Source: Dehalococcoidia bacterium (GTDB taxonomy: Bacteria; Chloroflexota; Dehalococcoidia; UBA2979). Taken from it: a stretch of 64,000 bases of DNA. The notes beneath the pieces are model-generated. The model worked only from the letters and a program-made list of their open reading frames with translations. It ran no database searches and had not been told where the DNA came from. Below, piece after piece: positions 1 to 44,253 of this stretch. The stretch spans positions 96,001 through 160,000 of the forward strand of contig OZ244720.1 in the NCBI GenBank assembly GCA_965219085.1. The letters are read 5' to 3'. A program made the position numbers and the translations under genes. Within the stretch, counting starts at the first letter, position 1. Every line of letters begins with the position of its first letter.

Positions 1-63
1 GACCGGCCTCACCACCTACTCGCTGCGCCCGGTACCGCCGGGTGGCACACCAGATAGCGGCCG

Positions 64-525
64 GTGGTGAGCGGCGTGTCACCCGAACCGCGCTGGCCCG
101 CCGAGCCGCTCGAAGCGGTCGCTGCGTACTGGGAGCAGCAGCCCCTGTACGCGATGTTCGGCATCGAGCTCGAGGCGCTCGAGGAGGGCTACGCGCGCAT
201 CGGCGTCGAGCGCGACCGCGTGCCGCTGCGCGGCGTGCGCGACTCGCTCAACGGTGGTGTCGTGGCCTCGCTCGGCGAGGCCGCCGCGCAGCTATGCCTG
301 ACGACCCAGCTCAGGCCCGACGAGGTGCTGGGCGTGACGCACGAGGTGAGCGTCTCCTACCTGACCTCGGCGCGCGGCGAGCACACCGTGGCCGAGGCGC
401 GCCTGCTGCGCCGCGGCGGGCGCATCGCCGTCGCCGACGTCGAGCTGCGCGACACGACAGACGGCGCGATCAACGCCAAGATCCGCGTCTCGATGGGCAT
501 CGACCGCGTCGAGGCGAGCACGTAG
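64..525 (+). CDS. PaaI-family thioesterase (hot-dog fold)
   Basis: 153-aa ORF; LNGGVVASLGE helix and T.E.SVSYL...GGRIAVADVEL pattern typical of PaaI/4HBT. Confidence 0.85.
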   Translation: MVSGVSPEPRWPAEPLEAVAAYWEQQPLYAMFGIELEALEEGYARIGVERDRVPLRGVRDSLNGGVVASLGEAAAQLCLTTQLRPDEVLGVTHEVSVSYLTSARGEHTVAEARLLRRGGRIAVADVELRDTTDGAINAKIRVSMGIDRVEAST

Positions 526-606
526 ACCCCTCGCCCCGTCCGACACCGCGCGGGCGGTAGCGGCGGCCATGCGGTACGCTTTCCCCATAACGTGGAAGGT
601 GGGCGC

Positions 607-1428
607 ATGCCCCGCTACCTGATCGTCGCCGACCAGACCGTCACCAGCCCGGACCTCGTCGCGCGCGCCTCGCAACTCGCGCGCGCCGAGCCCGACTCCA
701 CGTTCTCGCTGCTCCTGCCCGCCCTCCTGCCCTCGCACATCCGCGGCGGGCCGTTCGACGCGGTCACGCGCGGCCGCGCCGAGCAGGCGAAGCGGCTGCT
801 CGCCGCCGCCGGCATCGAGGTGGGCCGCACGGCCGTCGGCGACGCCGCGCCGCTGCTCGCGATCGAGGACGAGCTCACCGAGCATCCTGACGCGTACGAC
901 ACGATCATCCTCTGCACCCTGCCGGAGGGCATCTCGCGCTGGCTGCGCATGAACGTCCACCGCGACGCGGCCGAGCGCTTCGGCCTGCCCCTCGTCCACG
1001 TCGAGGCACGCATCGCGACGCGGCTCGAGTTCCGCCGCGCGACGCTGCACGACCACGAACGCATCCAGGCGCTGTGGGACGAGTCGCGCCTCGACACCGT
1101 CGACGAGCACGAGTGGGACACGCTCATCACGAGCCCGGGCGCGATCGTGCTGGTGGCCGAGGAAGAGGGCGCGCTCGTCGGCGCGATCGTCGGCACCTTC
1201 GACGGGTGGCGGGCGTACGTCTACCACGTGGCCGTCGTGCCCGGCCGGCGTCGGCGTGGCGTCGCCAAGGCGCTGTTCGAGGAGGCGCAGGCGCACCTCG
1301 CGTACGAGGGCAACCGCATCGTCTACGTGATGGTGAACGAGGAGAACGAGGGCGGCATGGCCCTGCTGCACTCGCTCGGCTACCGCCAGCAGGGCGACAT
1401 CGTGATGGTCACCGAGATCGGCGAGTAG
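607..1428 (+). CDS. USP-like N-terminal domain fused to a GNAT acetyltransferase
   Basis: N-term YLIVADQT...D.IILCTLP..ISRWLR.. (USP-like); C-term GTFDGWRAYVYHVAVVP..RRRGVA (GNAT motif A); ATG 607 after GAAGG. Confidence 0.75.
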   Translation: MPRYLIVADQTVTSPDLVARASQLARAEPDSTFSLLLPALLPSHIRGGPFDAVTRGRAEQAKRLLAAAGIEVGRTAVGDAAPLLAIEDELTEHPDAYDTIILCTLPEGISRWLRMNVHRDAAERFGLPLVHVEARIATRLEFRRATLHDHERIQALWDESRLDTVDEHEWDTLITSPGAIVLVAEEEGALVGAIVGTFDGWRAYVYHVAVVPGRRRRGVAKALFEEAQAHLAYEGNRIVYVMVNEENEGGMALLHSLGYRQQGDIVMVTEIGE

Positions 1429-1479
1429 CCAGCGTCGAGGCCCGTCGCACGCCGCCCTGCGAACCACCTGCGACGCAGC

Positions 1480-1839
1480 CTACTGGCGCGCGAGCGTCTG
1501 CCCGAGCCACACCGCCGCGAGCGCCCCCGTCACGCTCAGCACGACGTTGAGCGCGACGTACGTCCACTCGCCGTCCTGCGCGAGCCGCAGCGTCTCCAGG
1601 CTGAACGTCGAGAACGTGGTGTACGAGCCGAGCAGGCCGACGAGCAGCGCGGTGCGCAGCTCGGCGGGCATCCCCGTGCGCTCGACGAGGAACGTCGCAA
1701 GGAAGCCGATGGCGAAGGAGCCGGTGACGTTCACGGTGAGCGTGGCGGCCGGGAACGTCTCGGGCTGCACGGCGCGGCCGACGCCGTAGCGCAGGAGCGC
1801 CCCGGCCGCACCAGCCACCGCGATCAGCGCGAGTTGCAC
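1480..1839 (-). CDS. crcB: Fluoride efflux channel CrcB/FluC
   Basis: GAAGALLRY, FPAATLTVNVTGSF, G.LGSYTTFSTFSLE signature motifs. Confidence 0.95.
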   Translation of the reverse strand: MQLALIAVAGAAGALLRYGVGRAVQPETFPAATLTVNVTGSFAIGFLATFLVERTGMPAELRTALLVGLLGSYTTFSTFSLETLRLAQDGEWTYVALNVVLSVTGALAAVWLGQTLARQ

Positions 1840-1880
1840 ATCGCCACGCTACGAGGCGCGTGGCGTTTGGGCCAGCGGGC
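1807..1880. repeat. Direct repeat copy 1 (crcB promoter plus first 11 codons)
   Basis: 74 nt, 6 mismatches to 3290-3363 by manual alignment. Confidence 0.9.
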
Positions 1881-1968
1881 GTGGGGCATGGGTCGGGTGG
1901 GGGTTGCAAACCCATTCGGAGATCCGTAGAGTCGCCGCTTTCCTCCGCGCGTGTGGGGGAGGTGAGCA

Positions 1969-3288
1969 ATGCGCGTTCCTCGTTCGGCCCCGCTGCTGTT
2001 GTTCGTCGTGCTGCTGGTGGCCGCATCGGCCTTTGCCGGTTGCGGCCGCTTCGAGGACCAGTCACTGACCGTGACCGCGTTTATCGGCAGCGAGGGTGCT
2101 GGCGAAGTGGTGCTGGAGTGGGCGGGCGGTCCCCGGGACGTGCAGCTCTGGCAGTATCAGTACCGCCGCCCATCCCCCCTCCGTGTCGTCCCGTGGGGCG
2201 ACGAATGGCGAGACATCCCGCTTGAAAGCGTGCGCCTCGCTCGGCACCGAGTCGAAGGATTGGAGCCCGGGCGGGGGTACCACTTCCGCATGCGCCCGGT
2301 GTCATGGTCCGGACTCGGAGCGCCATCCGAACTCGCCTCATCAGTGTCGTCGGAGGTTGGCATCGACGGCATCGTGATTGCCGGGCATCGCCTTGCGCTC
2401 GAACGTGGCGGCAGGTTCCGTCTACCAACCTCGGAGTACTGGACCTTCAAGGTACCGCCCGAGGGTATTTTCGGGGCCGAACTCCATCACTTCGATTTCC
2501 CGGGCGACGCGATCACAGAGCTCAAGTCCGACGCGGTTCTGTTCCTTGAGCCGAACACGGGCAGAGAAACGGGCAGGTGGATCCCCGAAGGCAGCCGCAG
2601 CGACGTGGGTCCGCTGTTCGACCAGATCGCCGACTCCGTGCGGTACCGGCCGGAACACCCCGTTGGCCCGCTCTACGCACTGGTAGGTGCAGACGCGGGC
2701 GTGATCGTGCTGGAGTGGGAGCATCACGGATCGGGCGTGAGTCGCTGGCAGTACCGACAGCGAGAACGGCACCGGATCGACCGGGGCGAGTGGGGCGAGT
2801 GGGGCGAGTGGAGTGCGTGGGCAGAAATCCCCGGCAGCGACGCCGGCGCGAGGGTGCACCGGTTGAGTGGGCTCCTCGGCGGCGTGTCGTACGGCTTCGA
2901 GCTGCGACCGCAGCCGTTCGGGGCTCTGGTCTTCGGCGCTGACGCGTCCCTGCCCGCTACGGATCCCGGCAGCTTCGTGTGGACGAGCAGGCCCGAAAGC
3001 GGTCGAACCTTCAAGCTCTCTGAAGACTTCGTCTTTGACGTGCCGCGTGGCTTGCACCTCCGACTACTGTCCTTCACCTACCATCCCGCCGTGGTGCCCG
3101 GAGTGGACGTGCGCACCACCGTACGACGACGCGCAACCGCGATGCTCGACCTAGAGACCGGGTCCACTTTGGTCGTCTACGCGCCGACGGGTGAGTACCT
3201 CGGTCGCCACGTCACGTCCAGGGGTGAGCGGCTAGGGGTCGACGCGCTGTTCGACCAGATCGTCGCGTCCATCCGGCCCGCTCCGTAG
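1969..3288 (+). CDS. Lipoprotein with two [fibronectin type III + PsbP/DcrB-like] modules
   Basis: GGAGG RBS; lipobox FAGC; two Fn3-like segments (VVLEW...WQY...GL.PG..Y.F..RP), each followed by a domain ending LFDQI..S[VI]R. Confidence 0.75.
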   Translation: MRVPRSAPLLLFVVLLVAASAFAGCGRFEDQSLTVTAFIGSEGAGEVVLEWAGGPRDVQLWQYQYRRPSPLRVVPWGDEWRDIPLESVRLARHRVEGLEPGRGYHFRMRPVSWSGLGAPSELASSVSSEVGIDGIVIAGHRLALERGGRFRLPTSEYWTFKVPPEGIFGAELHHFDFPGDAITELKSDAVLFLEPNTGRETGRWIPEGSRSDVGPLFDQIADSVRYRPEHPVGPLYALVGADAGVIVLEWEHHGSGVSRWQYRQRERHRIDRGEWGEWGEWSAWAEIPGSDAGARVHRLSGLLGGVSYGFELRPQPFGALVFGADASLPATDPGSFVWTSRPESGRTFKLSEDFVFDVPRGLHLRLLSFTYHPAVVPGVDVRTTVRRRATAMLDLETGSTLVVYAPTGEYLGRHVTSRGERLGVDALFDQIVASIRPAP

Positions 3289-3289
3289 G

Positions 3290-3363
3290 CGCTCCGGCCA
3301 CCGCGATCAGCGCGAGTTGCACGTCGCCACGCTAGGAGGCACGTGGCGTTTGGGCCCGCGGGC
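3290..3363. repeat. Direct repeat copy 2 (orphan crcB promoter and 5' end)
   Basis: Begins 2 nt after the stop of the 1969-3288 gene; encodes VQLALIAVAGA on the minus strand. Confidence 0.9.
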
Positions 3364-3472
3364 GGCCGACGCGGGTCGACGGCCGGACGATTCGATAGAC
3401 GCACTTCTGCATGTAGCAGGATTCGCGCGCACGCTCCCACAAGGCCCAGCAGCACCAGAGGAACGAGGCAAC

Positions 3473-4045
3473 ATGCCCACTGACAGCACCAGCGATCCGA
3501 CAGACGTCAACATCGCGTTGCTGCGCGGGATCAACGTCGGTGGCAAGAACAGGCTGCCGATGAAGGATCTCGCAGCAATGTTCGTGGACGCGGGCTGCGA
3601 CGACGTTCGGACCTACATCCAGAGCGGGAACGTGCTCTTTCGGACGGAGCCGACGCGAGGCGAGGACATCCCATCCCTCATCAGTGCGTCGATCCTGAGT
3701 CACTTCGGCTACCAGGTTCCCGTGGTTGCTCGCGGAGCCCGGGAGCTCGAAGCGATTGTGCAGGCAAATCCCTTCGTTGAAGGCGGGGCCGAAACCGACA
3801 AGCTGCACGTCGTGTTCCTGGCGGATCTACCCGACGCCGAGCACGTCGGGGCACTCGACCCGGATCGCTCGCCACCCGACGAGTTCGCCGTGCGAGGTCG
3901 TGAAATCTATCTCCACTGTCCGAATGGGCTCGCGCGCAGCAAGCTCACGAACAGCTACTTCGACTCCAGACTTTCGACCATCAGCACGATGCGGAACTGG
4001 AAGACCGTGCGGAAGCTGCTCGAGCTGGCCGCCGATGTCCACTGA
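3473..4045 (+). CDS. DUF1697 family protein
   Basis: IALLRGINVGGKN...VRTYIQSGNV...TMRNWKTV motifs. Confidence 0.9.
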   Translation: MPTDSTSDPTDVNIALLRGINVGGKNRLPMKDLAAMFVDAGCDDVRTYIQSGNVLFRTEPTRGEDIPSLISASILSHFGYQVPVVARGARELEAIVQANPFVEGGAETDKLHVVFLADLPDAEHVGALDPDRSPPDEFAVRGREIYLHCPNGLARSKLTNSYFDSRLSTISTMRNWKTVRKLLELAADVH

Positions 4046-4148
4046 GCGACGGCGCGTCTGCCGCACGACCGCCGGCCCGACCCACGCCGCACCGCCGACG
4101 CGGCTATCATGCGCGCGACCGCGAAGCGCGAGCACCGGGAGGGACGCC

Positions 4149-5264
4149 ATGACCACGGGACGCGTCGTCGTCTTCAAGGACCACGGACTGCCGTTCGAGA
4201 TCGAGGAGTACCCGGTCCCCGACCCGGAGCCGGGCGGCATCATCCTCCGCATCACCCAGGCCGGCGTCTGCGGCTCCGACCTCCACACCTGGCGCGGTGA
4301 CCAGCGGCGCGTCCAGATCCCACCCTCGGGCCGGAACATGGGCCACGAGGGCGCCGGGGTCGTCTGGGCGCTCGGCGAGGGCCGCACCACCGACTCGCTC
4401 GGCCGCCCCATCCAGGAGGGCGACCGCCTGATGTACGCCGCGATCATGCCCTGCAACAGCTGCTACCACTGCGGGCGCGGCGAGAAGAACTGGTGCTCGA
4501 ACCGCCAGACGGGCATCGGCGCGCGCATCGCCGGCGAGTTCCCGTACTTCACCGGCACCTACGCCGACTACTTCTGGATCCCCGCCGGCCACCCCGTCTA
4601 CAAGGTCCCCGACGAGCTCCCCGACTCGGTGCTCGGCTGGGTCAACTGCGCGATGGGCACCGTCACCGAGGGCCTGCTCCGCGCGGGCTGCACCGCCGGC
4701 GACTACGTCGTGATCCAGGGCGCGGGTGGCCTCGGGCTGAACGCGACCGCGCTGGCCAGGGACATGGGCGCGAACAAGGTGATCGTGCTCGACCGCCTCG
4801 CCAACCGCCTCGAGCTCGCCGAGGAGTTCGGCGCCGACCACACCATCAACATCGAGGAGTTCAACACGCACGAGGCGCGCCGCGACCACATCCTCGACAT
4901 CACCGAGGGGCGCGGCGCGAACATCGTGATGGAACTCGTCGGCCGCGCCGAGTTGCTCGTCGAGGGCCTCGACTACCTCACCAACGGCGGCACGTTCATG
5001 GAGATCGGCGACATCGTGCCGGGACGGACCGTCGAGCTCGACCCGTCGACGATCCTGCGCGGCAAACGCATCATCGGCTCCTCGATGTACCGGCCGGAGC
5101 TGCTGCCGGTGATGATGGAGACGCTGGTCAAGAAGATGGACACGGTGCCGTACGACAAGATCGTGTCGGACTTCTACCCGCTCGACCAGGTCAACGAGGC
5201 GTTCGCCAGGGCCGAGTGGAACGAGACCCAGACGCAGATCTCGCGCGCGATGCTCGTGCCGTAG
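4149..5264 (+). CDS. Zinc-binding alcohol dehydrogenase (MDR family)
   Basis: GVCGSDLH, GHEGAG, C..C..C.......C structural Zn cluster, GAGGLG Rossmann motif. Confidence 0.92.
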   Translation: MTTGRVVVFKDHGLPFEIEEYPVPDPEPGGIILRITQAGVCGSDLHTWRGDQRRVQIPPSGRNMGHEGAGVVWALGEGRTTDSLGRPIQEGDRLMYAAIMPCNSCYHCGRGEKNWCSNRQTGIGARIAGEFPYFTGTYADYFWIPAGHPVYKVPDELPDSVLGWVNCAMGTVTEGLLRAGCTAGDYVVIQGAGGLGLNATALARDMGANKVIVLDRLANRLELAEEFGADHTINIEEFNTHEARRDHILDITEGRGANIVMELVGRAELLVEGLDYLTNGGTFMEIGDIVPGRTVELDPSTILRGKRIIGSSMYRPELLPVMMETLVKKMDTVPYDKIVSDFYPLDQVNEAFARAEWNETQTQISRAMLVP

Positions 5265-5293
5265 CGGCCGGCGTCGACCGACCGAGTGCCTCA

Positions 5294-5329
5294 ACGTGCG
5301 CCGGCGGTGACGCCGGCGCGCTGAGTCAC
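5294..5329. repeat. Displaced duplicate of the pcp 3' end
   Basis: 36 nt, 7 mismatches to 6029-6064; minus strand reads VTQRAGVTAGAR-stop versus pcp VTQRAGGTAGAH. Confidence 0.75.
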
Positions 5330-5587
5330 GTGGCCCTGTCGGAGGCAGGCGCGCGGATGCTGATCCCTCGGTGGAACCATGCGTGGTCGGGCAACGTAGT
5401 TCATGCGAGTGGATGTTGGTGCTGGCGAGATGCCAGTAGGGCGCGAGGGCGCCTTCCCGCATGCCGGGGTCCCGGTACCACATGCGTAGCGCGCCGACCA
5501 CGGACCGCGCACGACGGTGGAACAGGGGACAGATCGCGATGCGAGTCCACCTGAAGCCGCCGGGCCGGCTTCGGCCAGGCGGCGGTC

Positions 5588-6013
5588 ATGCTCGTCCTCG
5601 CGGTCGTGCTCATCGTCGCACTCGGACGTGAGGACCACTGCGAGCCACGGGCCAGCCTGGACGACGCAGATCAATTTGTAGACATGACCATTGGCTGGAA
5701 GGTGGACCTCCCCATCACTGGCCTCGCGACGCTCATCTGGTCGAAGTCATCCCCGCCGTACGACCGCGGGGAAGATGCCGTGATTCTCGACATTCCCGAG
5801 GGGGTTGTGATGACGGACGTGAGGGTGGAACGGGGGCATGTCCAACCCGGGCAGCCAGAGTATGTGATCGGCATTTTTCTGGAGGACGGTTCGAAGCTCG
5901 TCATTGACCCCGCTGGTCACAGGTGGGACCGAGACTCAAGGAGCCGCGCTGGCGCCATCGCCCTGGACCGTATCCAGGCCTCGATTCGGACGCTATGCCC
6001 GGGCCAGCCGTGA
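5588..6013 (+). CDS. Membrane-anchored or exported protein with one domain related to the C-terminal modules of 1969-3288
   Basis: Hydrophobic N-terminus; ILDIPEG...LEDGSKLVIDP.G...ALDRIQASIR parallels VFDVPRG...LETGSTLVVYAPTG...ALFDQIVASIR. Confidence 0.65.
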   Translation: MLVLAVVLIVALGREDHCEPRASLDDADQFVDMTIGWKVDLPITGLATLIWSKSSPPYDRGEDAVILDIPEGVVMTDVRVERGHVQPGQPEYVIGIFLEDGSKLVIDPAGHRWDRDSRSRAGAIALDRIQASIRTLCPGQP

Positions 6014-6667
6014 CCCTGAGCTGCTGGTATGCGCGCCGGCGGTGCCGCCCGCACGCTGCGTTACCAGGTCACGCACGAACTCGATCGCCGCGCGCACGCC
6101 GAGCGCCTGCGCGTCGAGCGCCATCGAGGGTGTGCCGGCGCGCTTGTCGATGGTCTGCTCGGGCAGGTACGGGAGGTGGATGAAGCCGCCGATCGCGCCC
6201 GCGCCCGTCGCGTCGAGGCGGTCCATCATCGCGTAGAGGGTCTCATTGCAGATGTAGGTGCCCGCCGTCTCCGACACCTGCGACGGGGCGCCCGCCTCGC
6301 GCATCGCCGCGGCTAGTTCGCCGACGGGCAGACGCGCGAAGTAGCCCGCGGGCCCACACGCCACGAGCGTCTGCTCCGGCATCACGCGCCCCTCGGCGTC
6401 GCGGTCGATGAGCACGTTGACGCCGGTGCGTTCGACCGAGAGGTGCGAGCGTCCGCCGGCCTCGCCGAGGCCGATCCACGCGTCGAACCCGCCCGCCTCG
6501 AACGCCGGGATGAGCCGGTCGAACGAGATGCGGCCGCGCACGGGCAGCCGCAGCAACTCGAGGTCGACGCCGTCCGGCGGCGCGGCGCCGATGGCGCTCG
6601 CGACCTCCCACGAGGGGTTCACGCGCTCTCCCCCGAACGGTTCGAAGCCCGACAGCAGCAGCCGCAT
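5993..6667 (-). CDS. pcp: Pyroglutamyl-peptidase I
   Basis: LLSGFEPFGGERVNPS, AGTYICN, GFIHLPY catalytic motifs; GGAGG RBS. Confidence 0.93.
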   Translation of the reverse strand: MRLLLSGFEPFGGERVNPSWEVASAIGAAPPDGVDLELLRLPVRGRISFDRLIPAFEAGGFDAWIGLGEAGGRSHLSVERTGVNVLIDRDAEGRVMPEQTLVACGPAGYFARLPVGELAAAMREAGAPSQVSETAGTYICNETLYAMMDRLDATGAGAIGGFIHLPYLPEQTIDKRAGTPSMALDAQALGVRAAIEFVRDLVTQRAGGTAGAHTSSSGSRLARA

Positions 6668-6733
6668 GACGCCCTCCTCCGGTTGGCCCGTCGCGTGCAG
6701 TCTAGCGACCCGCCGATGCCGTAGGCTGCGCGC

Positions 6734-7600
6734 ATGGAAGTCTTCCTCCTCGACGGGACGTACGAGCTGTTCCGCCACTACTTCGGCGCGCCCCCGCACC
6801 GCGACGCCGAGGGCAACGACGCGGGCGCGGTGGTCGGGGTGCTGGGCTCGGTGGTGAGGCTGTTCGAGGAGGGCGTGACGCACCTCGGCGTGGCGACGGA
6901 CCACGTCGTCGAGTCGTTCCGCAACGACCTGTGGCCGGGCTACAAGACCAGCGCGGGCATGGAGGAGGGCATCCTCGCGCAGTTCGTTCCCCTTGAGGAC
7001 GCGCTCACGGTGATGGGCGTCCGCGTGTGGCCGATGGTCGACCTCGAGGCCGACGACGCGCTCGCCTCCGCTGCCCTCCAGGCCGCCGAGGACCCCGACG
7101 TCACACGCGTGGTGATTGCGACGCCCGACAAGGACCTCGGGCAGTGCGTCGGCGGGAAGGTCGTGCAGTTCGACCGCCAGCGCCGCGAGGTGCGCGACGC
7201 CGCAGCCGTCGAGGCGCGCTTCGGCGTGCCGCCCGCCTCGATCCCCGACTACCTGGCGCTGACGGGCGACAGCGCCGACGGCTTCCCCGGCCTCAAGGGC
7301 TGGGGCGCGAAGTCGAGCGCGACGGTGCTCGCCCGCTACGGCCACATCGAGGCGATCCCGCTCGACCCGGCGGACTGGGACATCACGGTGCGCGGCGCGT
7401 CTCGGCTCGCGACTGCCCTCGTGGACGGCTACGACGCGGCGATGCTGTTCCGCGACCTCGCGACGCTGCGCACCTCGGAGCCCGTCTTCGAGTCGGTCGA
7501 GGAGCTGCGGTGGGCAGGCCCCACTGCCGAGTTCGAGGAGTTGGCGAACCACCTGCGCTCGCCAGGGCTGCTCACGCGCGCGCTGGCAGCTGCACCGTGA
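6734..7600 (+). CDS. 5'-3' exonuclease / flap endonuclease (H3TH)
   Basis: LLDGTYELFR, EADDALAS, PDKDL.Q, YLALTGDSADG.PG..GWG.K. Confidence 0.92.
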   Translation: MEVFLLDGTYELFRHYFGAPPHRDAEGNDAGAVVGVLGSVVRLFEEGVTHLGVATDHVVESFRNDLWPGYKTSAGMEEGILAQFVPLEDALTVMGVRVWPMVDLEADDALASAALQAAEDPDVTRVVIATPDKDLGQCVGGKVVQFDRQRREVRDAAAVEARFGVPPASIPDYLALTGDSADGFPGLKGWGAKSSATVLARYGHIEAIPLDPADWDITVRGASRLATALVDGYDAAMLFRDLATLRTSEPVFESVEELRWAGPTAEFEELANHLRSPGLLTRALAAAP

Positions 7601-7655
7601 ACCGCCTCGGCGGTAGCATCCCGCGCACCGGCGCACGATGCATGGAGGCCCACTC

Positions 7656-8072
7656 GTGACGCTCGACGTGCAGCCGCCCGGCATCCCGCTGCCCCGGCCC
7701 CGGGAACTCACGCAGCCGCACTGGGAGGGCTGCCGCCGCGGCGAGCTGCTCGTGCAGCGCTGCGAGGACTGCGGCCACCACGTCTTCATCCCCCAACACG
7801 CATGCACGGCCTGCCTCAGCGAGCGCCTCGAGTGGGTGCCGAGCAGCGGCACCGGCGTCGTCTACAGCTACACGACGGTCCACCGCCCGCAGCAGCCGGC
7901 GTTCGAGACGCCCTACGTGTGCGCCATCGTCGAACTCGACGAGGGCTGGCACATGCTCAGCAACCTCGTCGGCCTCGAGGCGGAGGGCGTGCGCATCGGG
8001 ATGCGTGTCGAGGTCGCCTTCCATGCGGTCTCGGACGAGGTGACGCTGCCGTACTTCCGGCCTGCCGAGTAG
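7656..8072 (+). CDS. Zn-ribbon/OB-fold protein (DUF35, ChsH2-like)
   Basis: WEG...GELLVQRCEDCG..F.P...C..C, SG.GVVYSYT; GGAGG RBS before GTG. Confidence 0.9.
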   Translation: MTLDVQPPGIPLPRPRELTQPHWEGCRRGELLVQRCEDCGHHVFIPQHACTACLSERLEWVPSSGTGVVYSYTTVHRPQQPAFETPYVCAIVELDEGWHMLSNLVGLEAEGVRIGMRVEVAFHAVSDEVTLPYFRPAE

Positions 8073-8145
8073 CGGCGGGCGCCTCGAGCCCGGGGGGCCG
8101 CGTCTTGCCCGCGTCCCGCGTGTCGGCCACACTTGGTTGAGGCTA

Positions 8146-8221
8146 TCCCCGATAGCTCAATCGGTAGAGCGAGCGGCTGTTAACCGCTAGGTTCGTGGTT
8201 CGAGTCCACGTCGGGGAGCCA
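8146..8221 (+). tRNA. tRNA-Asn(GTT)
   Basis: Cloverleaf TCCCCGA...AGCGG-CT-GTT-AA-CCGCT...GGTTCGAGTCC...TCGGGGAGCCA. Confidence 0.97.
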
Positions 8222-8405
8222 ACACTTATGTCGCGCATCTCCCCTTCGCCCCGCGCCCGAGGTGACTACGCCCGATCCGCGTCGCAATCTACAGACCGAC
8301 AGGACAGCCGAGGCGGCGGTGGAGGCCGTCGATCGACCCCGTACATGTGGGGAGCGTCTGGCGCGGCGCCAGGCTGGCGCTCGAATTACTTCGAAGGGAA
8401 CCGCG

Positions 8406-9206
8406 ATGACGACAGCAGAACAGTTCTTCACGATCGCGTGGCCCGGCGGAATGATGGGGCTCCGATGCATCGGGGTTGAGCCTGTCGGGGACAATCAGGT
8501 TGCCATAGTTCAAGAGGCCATGGAGCAGTTCGCTACCGAGTCCCACCTGATGTTCATCTGGTACATCGGCGTGCTGAACAGCCGTGAGGCCATTCAGCGT
8601 CAACTCTCTGACAGCATCGCACCCGAGAGTCCAGTCGCCGTCGTCAGCGCACGGGACGATGGCACAACCCGATCGATACGCACTCGAGTTCGCGGCGCCG
8701 AGGCTACTGACGCCATCGCGAGAGGAGCGGAGTTCGAGCGGTTGTACGCCAGATCGCACATCATCTCCGTGTTCACACTCTGGGAGGAGCTCATTCGTCC
8801 AAAGATCGCCGACGCGCTCGGCGTTGACCGAAACGCGGTGACTTCTGATCTCATGGGCGATTGGAGACATCTGAGAAACTGGCTCGTGCATCCGAAAGAC
8901 AGCACAGAAGAGGACTACTTCAACAACGCTCAGGCGCTGTCGGAGGCGCTGGGCTCACAGCGAGGGAGACCTGAGATCACGGCTGGCGGCGTTCTCGTCC
9001 TGATGGAACGGCTGAACGCACTTGCGGTGGTGGTGAACCCCCACAACCAAGAGCCACTCACACAGTTCGTTCCTCCAGACCCAGAGACGTGGGCGAAGAT
9101 ACAGCGAAGCCTTGGTCCTAACGACAGGGTCCTCCCAATGTGGCCCGGGGGCACCACATCCGAACAACGATCGGAGCCCTCGGGGGATCTCCCGACGACA
9201 TACTAA
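8406..9206 (+). CDS. Hypothetical protein with HEPN-like RNxxxH motif
   Basis: Codon usage differs from core genes; VFTLWEE helix and WRHLRNWLVH motif. Confidence 0.6.
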   Translation: MTTAEQFFTIAWPGGMMGLRCIGVEPVGDNQVAIVQEAMEQFATESHLMFIWYIGVLNSREAIQRQLSDSIAPESPVAVVSARDDGTTRSIRTRVRGAEATDAIARGAEFERLYARSHIISVFTLWEELIRPKIADALGVDRNAVTSDLMGDWRHLRNWLVHPKDSTEEDYFNNAQALSEALGSQRGRPEITAGGVLVLMERLNALAVVVNPHNQEPLTQFVPPDPETWAKIQRSLGPNDRVLPMWPGGTTSEQRSEPSGDLPTTY

Positions 9207-9536
9207 GCGAGGAACTAACACCAGATTCCTCTGGAGCCGCCGGGCCAACTCTCGCAACACTGACACCGCCCTTCGCGGCCTCAGTCGGGTCCCGCAAGAC
9301 GCCCTACGGCACACGGGACGCGCGCGCCGACAGTAGACCGACTCAGAGCGCCCACAACTAGCTCGAAGGTTCGTCGTACGGTCTCCCCTGGGGAGCCAAC
9401 CCGAGACCCGCCTGATGCGGCGATTGCGGCTGCGATCGTGAGCGGCCAAGTCTGACGAGATGTGGCTCGCCGTAACACACCGCAAGCTGTGCGGGGCACG
9501 TGAGGAACCCGGATCCTCAGCCGCGCCTCGCGCCGC

Positions 9537-16199
<6,663 letters not shown>

Positions 16200-34209: not shown

Positions 34210-34473
34210 ATGGCAACAGTGAACGTACGACGCCTCGACGACGTCGTCGTCCGCAAGCTCAAGGAGCGGGCGGCCGCGAACAACCGCTCACTCGAGGCGG
34301 AGCTACGCCACATACTCGAACAGGTCGTGGCCGGGGACGACTATCAGGCGAAGAAGAGGGCGTTCCTCGAGTACTCGAAGAAGCTGCGCGCGCTCACGGC
34401 CGGCCGCGAGCACACTCGGGCGGAAGAACTGATCAGGGCGAGCCGGGATAGCGGCTACGGACGCGGAACATGA
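34210..34473 (+). CDS. FitA-like ribbon-helix-helix antitoxin
   Basis: VNVRRLDD.V...LK.RAA.NNRSLEAELR.IL; overlaps a PIN gene. Confidence 0.88.
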   Translation: MATVNVRRLDDVVVRKLKERAAANNRSLEAELRHILEQVVAGDDYQAKKRAFLEYSKKLRALTAGREHTRAEELIRASRDSGYGRGT

Positions 34474-34898
34474 CGCAGTTGGTGGTCGACGCCAACGTCG
34501 CGGTCAAATGGCTCGTGGACGAGGAGCAGGTTGAGGAAGCCTCCCGCGTTCTGCTGGGCGACTCCGAGCTCCACGCTCCTCGGTTCATGGCTGCCGAGGT
34601 GGCTGACGTTCTGTGGCAAAAGGCGCGCCGAGGTGAGATCGAGCCCGCAACCGCCGGCACACTCGCCGACACCGTGCATGGTCTGCCCCTGCACTGGGCG
34701 AACGACGAGGCGTTCCTCAGCGACGCCGTGCGACTCGCCATCGAGCTCGACCACCCGGCGTACGACTGTATGTACCTCGCGCTCGCGCACGAACTCGGCG
34801 CGCCCCTTGTGACCGCGGATATGCGCTTCGTGAACCGCGTCGCCTTGACCACGCACGCCAGCGCGGTCATCAGCCTCTCCGAGTATCGCGGCCAGTAG
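34470..34898 (+). CDS. vapC: PIN-domain toxin (VapC family)
   Basis: VVDANVAVKW, E, AYDCMYLALA, LVTAD acidic residues. Confidence 0.92.
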   Translation: MTQLVVDANVAVKWLVDEEQVEEASRVLLGDSELHAPRFMAAEVADVLWQKARRGEIEPATAGTLADTVHGLPLHWANDEAFLSDAVRLAIELDHPAYDCMYLALAHELGAPLVTADMRFVNRVALTTHASAVISLSEYRGQ

Positions 34899-43428: not shown

Positions 43429-44253
43429 TTATGAGAGTCCAGCGTGTAGCTGAGTCTCCCAGCGCTCGGCGTAGGCAGCCGGAGCGAGCCAGCCCAGGCT
43501 GCTATGCGGGCGCTTCGTGTTGTACTCGATCCGCCAGTCCTCAAGCAGCACCTGCGCCTCAAGCAGGCTGTCGAACTGCTCGACCGCCAGGAACTCGTCG
43601 CGCAGCCGGCCGTTGAACGACTCGACGTACGGGTTCTCCCACGGCGCACCGGGCTCGATGTAGCTGCTGCCCGTGCCGGAGAACCGGCACCAGTCGCGGA
43701 GGGCGTTGGCCGTGAGCTCAGGTCCGTTGTCGCAGCGGATATACCCGGGCGCCGTCCCGCGCCGGGCGACGATCCCCTCGAGCGTTGAGGCCGTGGCGTC
43801 GGCGTTGATGCGCCTGGCGGCCACGATCGCCAGCGCCTCCCGTGTGTGCTCGTCGACGATGTTGAGCAGCTTCAGGACCCGCCCGTCCGCGGTCTGGTCG
43901 AACTGGAAGTCCAGCGCCCAGACGTGGTTCGGCCGCTCAGCGCGCAGCCTGGCGGCGGGCACCGCCGAGTCCCCCAGGCGCTGACGCTTGCGTCGTTTCA
44001 CCGGGACGCGCAGCCCTTCCTCACGCCAGAGCCGTTGCACCCGCTTGCGATTCACGCCCCATCCCTCCTCGCGTAAGGTCGCCCAGGCCCGGCGGTACCC
44101 CCAGCGGGGGTGGCCACGCGAGAAGGCGTGGAGTTCCGCGCGCAGCGCGTCGTCGCCGCGGCCGCGCACCGGGAGGCGGCGCTGTGTGGAGCGGTGCTGG
44201 CCGGTGACCCGGCATGCCCGCCGTTCCGACAACTCGAGGCGGTCCTGCAACAT
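43429..44253 (-). CDS. IS3 transposase OrfB (DDE integrase core)
   Basis: WALDF.FD, DNGPE, NPYVESFNG..RDE, YN..RPHSSLG. Confidence 0.95.
   Translation of the reverse strand: MLQDRLELSERRACRVTGQHRSTQRRLPVRGRGDDALRAELHAFSRGHPRWGYRRAWATLREEGWGVNRKRVQRLWREEGLRVPVKRRKRQRLGDSAVPAARLRAERPNHVWALDFQFDQTADGRVLKLLNIVDEHTREALAIVAARRINADATASTLEGIVARRGTAPGYIRCDNGPELTANALRDWCRFSGTGSSYIEPGAPWENPYVESFNGRLRDEFLAVEQFDSLLEAQVLLEDWRIEYNTKRPHSSLGWLAPAAYAERWETQLHAGLS

Follow-up and report, generated by a model that had tools for sequence, protein, structure and literature searches.

Introduction

Two unrelated housekeeping genes lying within 4.3 kb of each other, crcB and pcp, each carry one terminus in duplicate, and the question raised by this locus is how a single small gene came to be enclosed by each pair of copies. 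The locus belongs to a window of 64,000 nucleotides from a Dehalococcoidia bacterium (contig OZ244720.1, positions 96,001 to 160,000), and a first-pass annotation of this window had proposed an undescribed mode of dispersal for a variable surface-protein family, based on gene-end replacement arms and either a trans-acting recombinase or homology-facilitated illegitimate recombination. Some integrative elements have coding genes as their targets, and their attP contains a replacement for the gene end; the minimal mobile elements of Neisseria are variable cassettes found at fixed slots between conserved genes and exchanged by homologous recombination; and insertion sequences of the IS1634/IS1549 type display long variable target duplications together with terminal inverted repeats. 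The anatomy itself has already been published under the name of insertion with long target duplication, known for restriction-modification genes (Furuta, Abe and Kobayashi, 2010, PMC2853133); in the sections of that paper drawn on here the mechanism is unproven, and DNA breakage made by the cargo is suggested.

Results

Duplicated gene ends around single genes

The features of both inserts are listed in Table 1. As had been annotated, each duplicate pair encloses one long coding-like ORF, and neither insert contains a Pfam match to an integrase or a transposase.

Table 1. Features of the two inserts and their surroundings (window positions)
Feature	Positions	Strand	Remarks
crcB, fluoride channel family, intact, GTG start	1480..1839	-	Pfam CRCB E=7.7e-29
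crcB 5' end, working copy	1807..1881	-	11 codons plus ~42 nt upstream; alignable as far as 1895
Putative cargo-gene promoter-like pair (TTGCAA, 17 nt, TAGAGT) and ribosome-binding site	1904..1962	+	By eye
P1, 439 aa	1969..3288	+	Lipoprotein-like signal (by eye), then two units of fn3-like domain and unnamed ~100-aa domain
crcB 5' end, leftover (orphan) copy	3290..3364	-	Starts 1 nt past the P1 stop
DUF1697 gene, between both inserts	3473..4045	+	Pfam E=1.9e-43
Zinc-binding dehydrogenase gene, left neighbour of insert 2	4149..5264	+	Pfam ADH_N, ADH_zinc_N
pcp 3' end, leftover copy	5291..5329	-	12 codons and native-type stop; matches relatives' pcp ends
P2, 141 aa	5588..6013	+	Hydrophobic N-terminus and one unnamed domain; no Pfam match; profile E=2.4e-6
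pcp 3' end, working copy	6032..6064	-	
pcp (pyroglutamyl peptidase), open, C-terminal tail replaced	5993..6667	-	Pfam Peptidase_C15 E=5.3e-49

The crcB copies, separated by 1,408 nt, differ at 6 of 75 nt (1807-1881 against 3290-3364; 92% alike, 95 bits), their alignment stretches to 89 nt at 87%, and the leftover copy runs on into the upstream region of the DUF1697 gene. The pcp duplicate is shorter (32-39 nt), with 703 nt between copies that differ at 5 of 32 nt (5298-5329 against 6033-6064); this pair scores 27.8 bits, which is near noise when taken alone, 1,363 of 4,983 genome-wide pairs lying at 25-30 bits. We accepted it because the leftover copy (5291-5329) is in frame to a stop and matches the pcp end of all six relatives aligned; the duplicate is, moreover, placed exactly at the relatives' empty site. 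In agreement with the annotation, the translated coding parts of the duplicates differ mostly at synonymous positions (two synonymous and no other differences for crcB, five synonymous and one non-synonymous for pcp). The end of the working pcp gene was not restored: the final codon and the stop are gone, and the frame continues for 12 codons inside the insert (5993-6031), where it overlaps the 3' part of P2. A frameshift may have affected the beginning of P2, as position 5539 has an ATG, preceded by a purine-rich ribosome site, in a different frame from P2.

The promoter-like pair ahead of P1, which scores under the threshold of the consensus scan, is kept ahead of homologous cargo genes in two relatives (G007 and G014); over positions 1700-6200, the consensus promoter scan and a terminator scan each gave zero hits. 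An RNA-family search of window positions 1-9000 revealed neither a fluoride riboswitch nor another family at the duplicated crcB upstream region; the matches obtained in that interval were a tRNA-Asn and one at chance level.

The duplications are not an assembly artefact. Contigs from runs X2 and X3 cover positions 1065-3961 with 0 differences, an X3 contig covers 5178-6919 with 0 differences, and X4, from another study, covers 5267-6101 with 4 differences, all being runs that may include the source sample. Among 15 of the 81 joints listed, assembled contigs of public runs contained no circle or empty-site joint.

The shared domain and its paralogues

Sequence comparison supports a shared, unnamed domain of ~100 residues in P1 and P2, P2 being only a distant homologue. 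BLASTP between both proteins gave E=0.002, and a domain profile trained without P2 assigned it E=2.4e-6 in a search of 34,799 genome ORFs, the training library deriving from a search whose seed included P2 as one of eight rows. Homology of the two proteins, as annotated, is thus upheld at the profile level; their export is putative, the N-termini having been judged by eye. The fn3 match of P1 lies under the Pfam cut-off (E=0.0057) and over it in the G007 homologue, and no restriction, modification or nuclease Pfam match was obtained for P1 or P2.

The genome holds nine loci with the domain. Clear short gene-end brackets were found at two, both in the window; a third member has a decayed bracket of 15-20 nt, a copy of the mutS2 end; one locus lies inside a 1.36-kb whole-gene duplication; and the remaining five have none, so that the flanking duplications anticipated for the paralogues are confined to a minority. 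Likewise, among nine distinct loci of P1 homologues for which 900 nt or more can be seen on each side, host gene-end brackets were present at two (the crcB site described here and that of G007), one was bracketed by the repeat of its own tandem array, and six by nothing. The bracket at G011 was considered as a host gene end and rejected, as the repeated sequence belongs to an array of tandem paralogues. A check of 21 loci for the same cargo at other sites retrieved mostly homologues of 64-79% identity without brackets, with a gene-end copy only at the same-site cassette of G016, and a 30-nt intergenic repeat at two loci.

Empty sites and alleles in relatives

Comparison with related genomes supports the view that both window loci are insertions, the relatives having empty sites. 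The crcB site is single-copy in G018, G016, G014 and G008, filled in G007, and interrupted by a contig break in G003; the pcp site is directly joined in G007 and G014. One-copy empty sites were also found for the Fic site (4/5 genomes, with an 81-nt overlap), an aspartyl-protease site (6/6) and an RNase H site (3/5).

The crcB insert joint is common to the window genome and G007, and the flanks differ between them. Between these genomes the working copies differ at 5/75 nt and the leftovers at 14/59; relative to G018, the leftover shows 11/75 differences and the working copy 8/75. Across genomes, identity at the crcB slot is 32% for the cargo, against 74-96% for the neighbouring genes, and the P1 unit with its promoter occupies two adjoining slots in different genomes. 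Both copies at the window sites carry bases found in no sampled relative, which implies either that the donor was very close kin or that the copies were made alike in place; no donor of either window cassette was detected among the sampled relatives.

At other sites the leftover is native-like, as for trpS (12 vs 1 informative columns to G018), the aminopeptidase gene (8 vs 0, along its entire length) and the Fic site (4 vs 1, in three genomes); at trpS and the aminopeptidase gene the working ends are unlike all relatives, whereas the leftover resembles them. For the pheS and DUF885 gene cassettes, common to two genomes, the copies in each genome share the bases of their own lineage. Over 19 sites, the working copy was closer to G018 at 12 and the leftover at 6, with one tie (78 vs 52 columns), in an ungapped comparison that distorts the crcB row; this mixed polarity is fitted as well by plain duplication followed by decay. 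Furthermore, the same cargo end joins its target at differing points at the trpS 3' end (G014 vs G016) and at the DUF885 gene, a pattern that can also result from later small deletions.

Both parental arrangements are visible in relatives for one locus of the genome (1757200-1763000). It begins with a G003-type allele, consisting of PCD, a DndB block and the first ~95 nt of an aminotransferase gene, and continues with a G014-type allele, in which 204 nt from the 5' region of PCD precede different cargo and the whole aminotransferase gene; a single joint connects the alleles, bringing together two unrelated genes that have 2-3 bases in common there. This locus displays a homologous anchor on one side and a near-microhomology-free joint on the other.

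Genome-wide survey of gene-end duplications

Gene-end pairs numbered 51 at distances of 150-3,150 nt and 3 at 3,150-6,150 nt, against 0, 0 and 0 at three shifted control distances; an insertion whose joint misses the shared segment produces no duplicate and escapes this count. A curated set of 33 sites was obtained by removing 23 of 55 filter rows by hand, namely tandem paralogues, repeat proteins, overlapping rows, long near-whole-gene duplicates and one row with an IS5-like ORF, some of which may be true cases, and by adding pcp by hand, its pair having failed the filter. The window cassettes are ordinary members of this genome-wide set, in which the cargo is mixed: toxin-antitoxin-type Pfam matches were obtained at 10 of the 24 sites scanned, and the other cargo included NYN, PaREP1, DndB, GNAT, protease and exported proteins. 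The unnamed domain is present at only 2 of the 33 sites. Duplicates range from 31 to >200 nt, and span a start or stop at 27/33 sites, a proportion that is partly built into the filter.

Regarding the codons that differ between copies, 73/147 are synonymous genome-wide, and the duplicates, which had been annotated as recoded, are better read as two alleles. A simulated freely decaying copy displayed 37-40% synonymous changes; the observed share was reached in 0/400 runs at the rate closest to the divergence and in 26/400 at the lowest rate, so the excess is modest, and the test combines a simple model with hand-curated sites. At one site (genome 174340) the copies are identical over 117/117 bases.

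No terminal inverted repeats were detected at the 33 sites (mean score 5.0 vs 5.06 in the control), nor was a shared junction motif or cassette-end sequence found over the 33 joints, by eye and by pairwise end scores. The absence of a shared motif, together with the variable joints at one gene end, leaves the proposal of att-like arms served by a recombinase in trans unsupported. Matches to the large serine recombinase domain number 9 in the genome, and those to tyrosine recombinases only 2, a number equalled or exceeded in every genome of the genus; these recombinase matches sit elsewhere, neither in nor beside the window inserts. TIGR01765, which we take to be a model for the IS1634/IS1549-type transposase, gave 0 matches in this 92.7% complete genome, being a single short model (73 positions) that covers the family only partly. 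ComEC and DprA were found in 19/19 genomes, and were also over cut-off in 10/14 controls.

Discussion

We consider both inserts to be probably scars of host recombination with DNA from relatives, having one homologous and one illegitimate end; homology-facilitated illegitimate recombination, the second option of the first-pass annotation, fits the data best. At birth, DNA of a relative carrying extra genes beside the same host gene would recombine homologously inside that gene, and its far end would be joined illegitimately, at a point that the recipient's own gene end still covers, which would leave a working gene end beside the cargo and the native end beyond it. The same product is expected from a linear one-ended event and from a single crossover by a re-circularised fragment. 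During spread, the leftover copy may act as a second homology arm, so that an ordinary double crossover would insert the cargo in any relative with that host gene, independently of whatever lies beyond the gene. Loss would follow from recombination between the copies, restoring the empty site, and fixation from decay of the leftover, giving cargo without brackets; both steps are partly shown. The cargo would be any small accessory DNA beside the gene, and both surface proteins would be passengers.

Support for such an origin comes from conjugation in E. coli, where a homologous gene segment was duplicated in 56/60 clones (109-950 bp in the 14 sequenced), an outcome ascribed in the portion of the study considered here to a single crossover by re-circularised, partly degraded DNA; the same source reports that one-ended events are rare in the laboratory (3.5e-10), which counts against our explanation (PMC3240628). 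Also weighing against it are the lack of a donor for either window cassette among the sampled relatives, the mixed polarity of the copies and, at crcB, a leftover that is no closer to G018 than the working copy. The likeness extends to one homologous anchor with one non-homologous joint, a variable anchor duplication, and part of the native gene pushed to the far side of the insert (PMC3240628). Such recombination has also been invoked for the displacement of T6SS effectors (PMC5361080). As far as these accounts go, they concern laboratory crosses or polymorphic toxin loci, whereas the present events are deduced from genomes and affect housekeeping gene ends (PMC3240628, PMC5361080). In its classical form, homology-facilitated illegitimate recombination deletes recipient DNA and leaves no duplicate, while a duplicate is present here.

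A circular route, in which small circles excise and re-integrate through imperfect repeats in the manner of microcin H47, by RecA-independent or RecA-dependent host functions, is unlikely as the main means of movement. The anatomy is the same, a recombinase-free unit between long imperfect direct repeats; in the H47 report, as far as it is used here, excision and integration occur at several identity stretches in recA cells (PMC3191183); the crcB joint common to the window genome and G007 despite differing flanks agrees with it, and toxin-antitoxin cargo would be expected to resist pop-out loss. Against this, the route needs a pre-existing repeat and therefore leaves the first joint unexplained, the PCD/aminotransferase joint fuses two unrelated genes, and the aminopeptidase leftover, native-like throughout, would force the crossover to its extreme edge. 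We regard as somewhat less likely still a true target-site duplication, by capture at a staggered or resected break, with copies identical at first and no donor allele. The identical copies of the genome 174340 site, the greater closeness of the working copy to G018 at 12/19 sites, several leftovers with indels and the lineage-specific bases in both window copies speak for it, as does the break-based route suggested for restriction genes in the relevant part of PMC2853133. It gives no account of how the alleles of two relatives came to stand in tandem across a single joint, of trpS and aminopeptidase leftovers that match relatives while the working ends differ, or of the synonymous excess, and the window cargo lacks a nuclease Pfam match, as the sites lack terminal inverted repeats.

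Two further ideas of the annotation fare worse. Integrase-free cassettes moved by a site-specific recombinase in trans, with an attP that carries a replacement gene end, would explain the attL/attR-like geometry and the near-identical stretch of trpS followed by a diverged, replaced start, and the 9 large serine recombinase matches offer an enzyme; we find this very improbable, as 33 unrelated targets without a common motif, duplicates of widely ranging length and only two tyrosine-recombinase matches oppose it, and the joints that vary at one gene end already largely refute it. A mode particular to the exported-protein family we hold to be scarcely credible. It draws on the two bracketed members within 4.3 kb, the third member with its mutS2-end copy, the P1 unit in adjoining slots and the divergent cargo of the crcB slot; it founders on the rarity of the domain among the curated sites and on P1-homologue brackets restricted to the crcB site. 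A dispersal system of that family was rejected, since most domain paralogues lack brackets and unrelated cargo is bracketed alike.

Regarding known systems, the window units resemble gene-end-replacing integrative elements in having the working end beside the insert and the leftover at its far side, and differ from them in that no integrase lies in or beside the unit, no fixed crossover core is seen over 33 joints, dozens of unrelated targets are used, and pcp did not regain its stop. Variable cassettes, fixed slots and homologous exchange are shared with the Neisseria minimal mobile elements, which recombine through the genes on either side and are not known to require a duplicated gene end. 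The terminal inverted repeats of IS1634/IS1549-type elements are missing inside the duplications (5.0 vs 5.06 over 33 sites). Like the microcin H47 island of E. coli, the inserts have long imperfect direct repeats, no recombinase inside and hybrid empty sites; as described in the parts of the literature used here, that island measures 13 kb and has att-like repeats at many E. coli sites (PMC3191183, PMC5426353), whereas each repeat here is a unique host gene end.

The closest resemblance is to the units of Furuta et al., in the portion of their paper considered here: small inserts with no mobile-element gene, variable duplications of >30 bp, often across a start or stop codon, and empty sites in relatives (PMC2853133). 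The window inserts are <20 kb, with duplications >30 bp, no other mobile-element gene and a single-copy empty site in a relative, and contain no restriction and modification genes. In place of these, the present cargo consists of toxin-antitoxin modules, exported proteins and others; the copies are mostly 78-96% alike, against near-identical pairs among the rows of their Table 2 compared here, and ~33-51 cases occur in one genome, against 9/760 locus pairs in their intraspecific survey (PMC2853133). A narrow literature search retrieved no paper on toxin-antitoxin islets with target duplications; papers that mention both long target duplication and toxin-antitoxin systems do exist. The anatomy of insertion with long target duplication here brackets cargo free of restriction enzymes at no fewer than 33 sites of one genome, and empty, filled, refilled and decayed states are all present among close relatives; non-restriction cargo at many sites, together with visible parental alleles, favours a general host-recombination route.

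As a tentative extension, which we hold possible though doubtful, the leftover end could, in this genus, be a functional part as well as a scar, and make the cassettes self-targeting. Host recombination would then suffice to spread toxin-antitoxin modules and surface-protein genes between lineages, with dozens of housekeeping-gene ends as entry points and independently of synteny beyond the gene, as the dominant route for small genes in the genus and as a general nuclease-free account of insertion with long target duplication. If so, the PCD/aminotransferase locus would be a natural case with both parents visible.

The unnamed surface domain constitutes a side lead. No Pfam family names it, an ESM Atlas query with P2 gave no usable match, the single-sequence structure prediction of P1 reached a pLDDT of 32, and Foldseek with the domain model gave no match at E<=0.001. 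The domain model (pLDDT 89) shows a beta-sheet with a C-terminal helix, and its structural matches include several PsbP-type chains (Z 5.2, rmsd 3.1, 78 aligned) as well as LpqN, MTC28 and TplEi (Z 4.0-4.7), which we take to group in a PsbP/Mog1-like family; the best scores (Z 5.2-5.4) are all below 8 and tied with unrelated acetyltransferase folds. As a lead only, the predicted domain may resemble the PsbP/Mog1-like fold.

Gene-end duplications and cargo in the window

The source genome is a single contig of 3.3 Mb with a G+C content of 69.8%; the window takes in its bases 96,001-160,000. The first-pass annotation described two housekeeping genes with one terminus duplicated, and both duplications hold (Table). 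The crcB copies differ at 6 of 75 nt and span 11 codons plus about 42 nt upstream, the right copy starting one base past the stop of P1, the cargo ORF of this insert; by sequence, the duplication is strong. The pcp copies around P2, the second cargo ORF, differ at 5 of 32 nt and score 27.8 bits, as many chance pairs do; though weak by score, this duplication is judged genuine, since the left copy is open in frame up to a stop codon, in agreement with the end of pcp in all six relatives, and the working pcp (the functional gene's copy) has lost that native stop and is read for 12 codons into the insert. The coding parts differ mainly at synonymous positions, as had been noted (the two sites together have 7 synonymous differences and 1 non-synonymous). 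Both inserts are spanned, with 0 to 4 differences, by contigs from other public runs, so an assembly artefact is ruled out; the source sample may be among those runs. On the minus strand, the leftover crcB copy (the orphan end beyond the cargo) retains a -10-like box and a start codon. The resulting reading frame of 36 codons runs antisense to P1, and the copy could drive antisense transcription into it.

Gene order around the two inserts was kept in six congeners among the 30 relatives searched, and empty sites were looked for and found: crcB is single-copy ahead of DUF1697 in four genomes (G018, G016, G014 and G008; the G003 contig breaks there), and the dehydrogenase and pcp genes are directly joined in G007 and G014. 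P2 is absent from the pcp slot in all six, which is filled by palindromic sequence in G018, G003 and G008 and by an unrelated 182-aa protein, without a duplicate, in G016. At the identical crcB joint, G007 also has a cassette, whose cargo shares 32% identity with P1 and whose leftover copy has lost 17 nt. In G014, the next slot along, which lies between DUF1697 and the dehydrogenase, holds a homologue of P1 that has the same promoter and no accompanying duplicate. By sequence comparison, both cassettes are insertions. In G018, G003 and G008 alike, a G+C-rich family of palindromic repeats occupies the intergenic slots upstream of crcB and between the dehydrogenase and pcp.

P1 has an N-terminus that looks lipoprotein-like by eye, followed by two repeats, each an fn3-like domain and then a domain of about 100 residues that no Pfam family names; P2 has a single copy of this unnamed domain. 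The proposed homology of P1 and P2, weak in direct comparison (E=0.002), was borne out by a profile trained without P2, which detected P2 at E=2.4e-6 as the lowest-ranked of 12 domain matches in 11 genome ORFs. A search of 1.84 billion representatives returned 207 proteins at E<=0.001; the structure model (pLDDT 89) gave weak matches (Z about 5), several of PsbP type. An ATG at window 5539, with a purine-rich upstream site and basic residues, is out of frame with P2 (start 5588), and the sequence between them is identical in other runs; P2 may be frameshifted or a pseudogene, or 5588 may be a weak start. Several paralogues carry an N-terminal helix-turn-helix, which we take to be LuxR-like from its appearance, and possibly form a one-component sensor family.

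Table. Coordinates of the features discussed
Feature	Location	Remark
crcB copies	window 1807-1881; 3290-3364	
P1	window 1969-3288 (+)	cargo of crcB insert
pcp copies	window 5298-5329; 6033-6064	
P2	window 5588-6013 (+)	cargo of pcp insert
tRNA-Asn, then orphan 314-aa ORF and 2,220-aa exported protein	window 8146-16199	LRR, cadherin and SWM repeats in the exported protein
Small ORF and PIN-domain gene	window 34210-34898	toxin-antitoxin-like
rve integrase-core transposase ORF	window 43429-44253	
Helix-turn-helix plus unnamed-domain paralogues	genome 210019-211719; 1114604-1116259; 1624731-1627386; 2247540-2249234	
Identical gene-end duplication (L033)	genome 174340-174896	117 nt, around 85-aa ORF
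Tandem aminotransferase/PCD locus (L043)	genome 1757200-1763000	joint near L043:3676
trpS copies (L048)	genome 2794022-2794108; 2795289-2795375	
Palindromic repeats	L013:4837-4988; L014; L015; L018	
Tandem fn3 plus unnamed-domain genes (L126)	G011:C2:592000-602000	in a related genome

Bracketed inserts across the genome

The genome was scanned for direct repeats of low copy number in which one copy lies at a gene terminus, genes being taken from our own codon model. There were 51 pairs at 150-3,150 nt and 3 at 3,150-6,150 nt; the three distance-shifted controls each gave 0. Hand curation removed 23 of 55 rows and added pcp, and in the 33 sites that remained the repeats measure 31-131 nt and the inserts 197-2,762 nt. 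Toxin-antitoxin-type matches occurred in the cargo at 10 of the 24 sites scanned (HicAB; Phd/PIN; three more PIN; Gp49/HTH; two Fic; DUF433; nucleotidyltransferase/HepT), the remainder including NYN, PaREP1, DndB, GNAT, aspartyl protease, LppM and unnamed exported proteins. Clean empty sites were seen for Fic (4 of 5 genomes), protease (6 of 6) and RNase H (3 of 5), and the same gene ends in relatives bear their own bracketed cassettes with different cargo. The duplication at L033, with zero differences, is probably the youngest case.

The first-pass annotation had suggested a possible dispersal mode of one surface-protein family, which would leave a duplicated neighbouring gene end at each paralogue. 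This did not hold: among nine genome loci with the unnamed domain, clear short brackets occur only at the two in the window, one retains a decayed duplicate of the end of a gene that is, from its sequence, presumably mutS2-like, one sits inside a 1.36-kb whole-gene duplication, and five have no bracket. Likewise, P1 homologues in the genus occupy 30 loci, nine of them distinct with at least 900 nt visible on either side, and host-gene-end brackets were found only at the window site and its G007 counterpart. With unrelated cargo at the other bracketed sites, a mode particular to this family is scarcely credible.

Origin of the duplications

The locus most telling about mechanism is the tandem aminotransferase locus. 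In G003 a DndB block separates the gene PCD from the aminotransferase; in G014 a different small gene stands between the two, an arrangement whose right part G007 and G008 match. The source genome carries the G003-type and then the G014-type arrangement, fused at one joint with 2-3 shared bases between 5' pieces of the two genes: the first arrangement breaks off about 95 nt into the aminotransferase, and the second sets in at PCD, 204 nt from where the shared upstream segment ends. Two gene-end duplications thus arise from one non-homologous joint that links two alleles of a single locus, as an event with one homologous and one illegitimate end would leave them. Indels occur in both leftovers there.

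We therefore favour, with moderate confidence, birth of the inserts by host recombination with one homologous and one illegitimate end, and later spread of the cassette through the leftover copy as a homology arm; both steps are inferred. This ranking rests on the single-joint locus; on native-like leftover copies at the trpS, aminopeptidase and Fic sites; on cassettes common to two genomes, whose copies within each genome carry that lineage's bases (for crcB, working copies differ from those of G007 at 5 of 75 nt and leftovers at 14 of 59); and on a synonymous share of 73/147 over curated sites, higher than the 37-40% that a freely decaying copy reaches in simulation. Against it were weighed the comparison with G018 at 19 sites, in which the working copy is nearer at 12 and the leftover at 6, the polarity at crcB, whose leftover is not nearer to G018, the many leftovers that simply decayed, the lack of a known donor for the window crcB and pcp sites, and ComEC and DprA, present here but common in controls too. 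As the main route, circle excision with re-integration is unlikely. True target duplication is slightly less likely still, since it would not give a single joint between two alleles, and at the tandem locus both it and an att crossover are ruled out by that fusion.

Insertion by a trans-acting recombinase on att-like arms, the other element of the initial proposal, is very improbable. Two tyrosine and nine serine recombinase matches lie elsewhere in the genome, so absence from the cassettes leaves room for such an enzyme; yet the 33 sites show neither terminal inverted repeats nor shared ends nor a junction motif, a given cargo end joins its target at points that vary between genomes (later deletion could contribute), and a single enzyme serving 33 unrelated targets seems unlikely.

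In anatomy the inserts match 'insertion with long target duplication', a class in which start or stop codons often lie within the repeats; PMC2853133 defines it by restriction-gene cargo, so ours work in the same way and fall strictly outside it. That paper states that experimental evidence for the release and re-infection steps of the class is lacking. Variable anchor duplications arose in 56 of 60 laboratory clones (PMC3240628), and one-ended recombination was proposed as the cause of displacement at T6SS loci (PMC5361080). The H47 island was shown to excise by its imperfect repeats with no recombinase (PMC3191183, PMC5426353). The window cassettes are a real instance of a known, widespread, poorly explained pattern, and differ from its described cases in cargo and density; a search mostly outside subscription journals found no published account of such density with toxin-antitoxin and surface-protein cargo. 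The main gain is comparative evidence on mechanism.

Other observations

At L048, trpS now begins with a different N-terminus and ribosome-binding site, and the leftover copy retains the start found in five of five relatives, where the ATG lies about 7 nt past a -10-like box; trpS of those relatives is possibly leaderless. L126 holds three near-identical fn3 plus unnamed-domain genes in tandem, the promoter region being repeated before each. In G003 and G008, a large serine recombinase match lies just beyond the region corresponding to the window's tRNA-Asn segment, suggesting an island site there.
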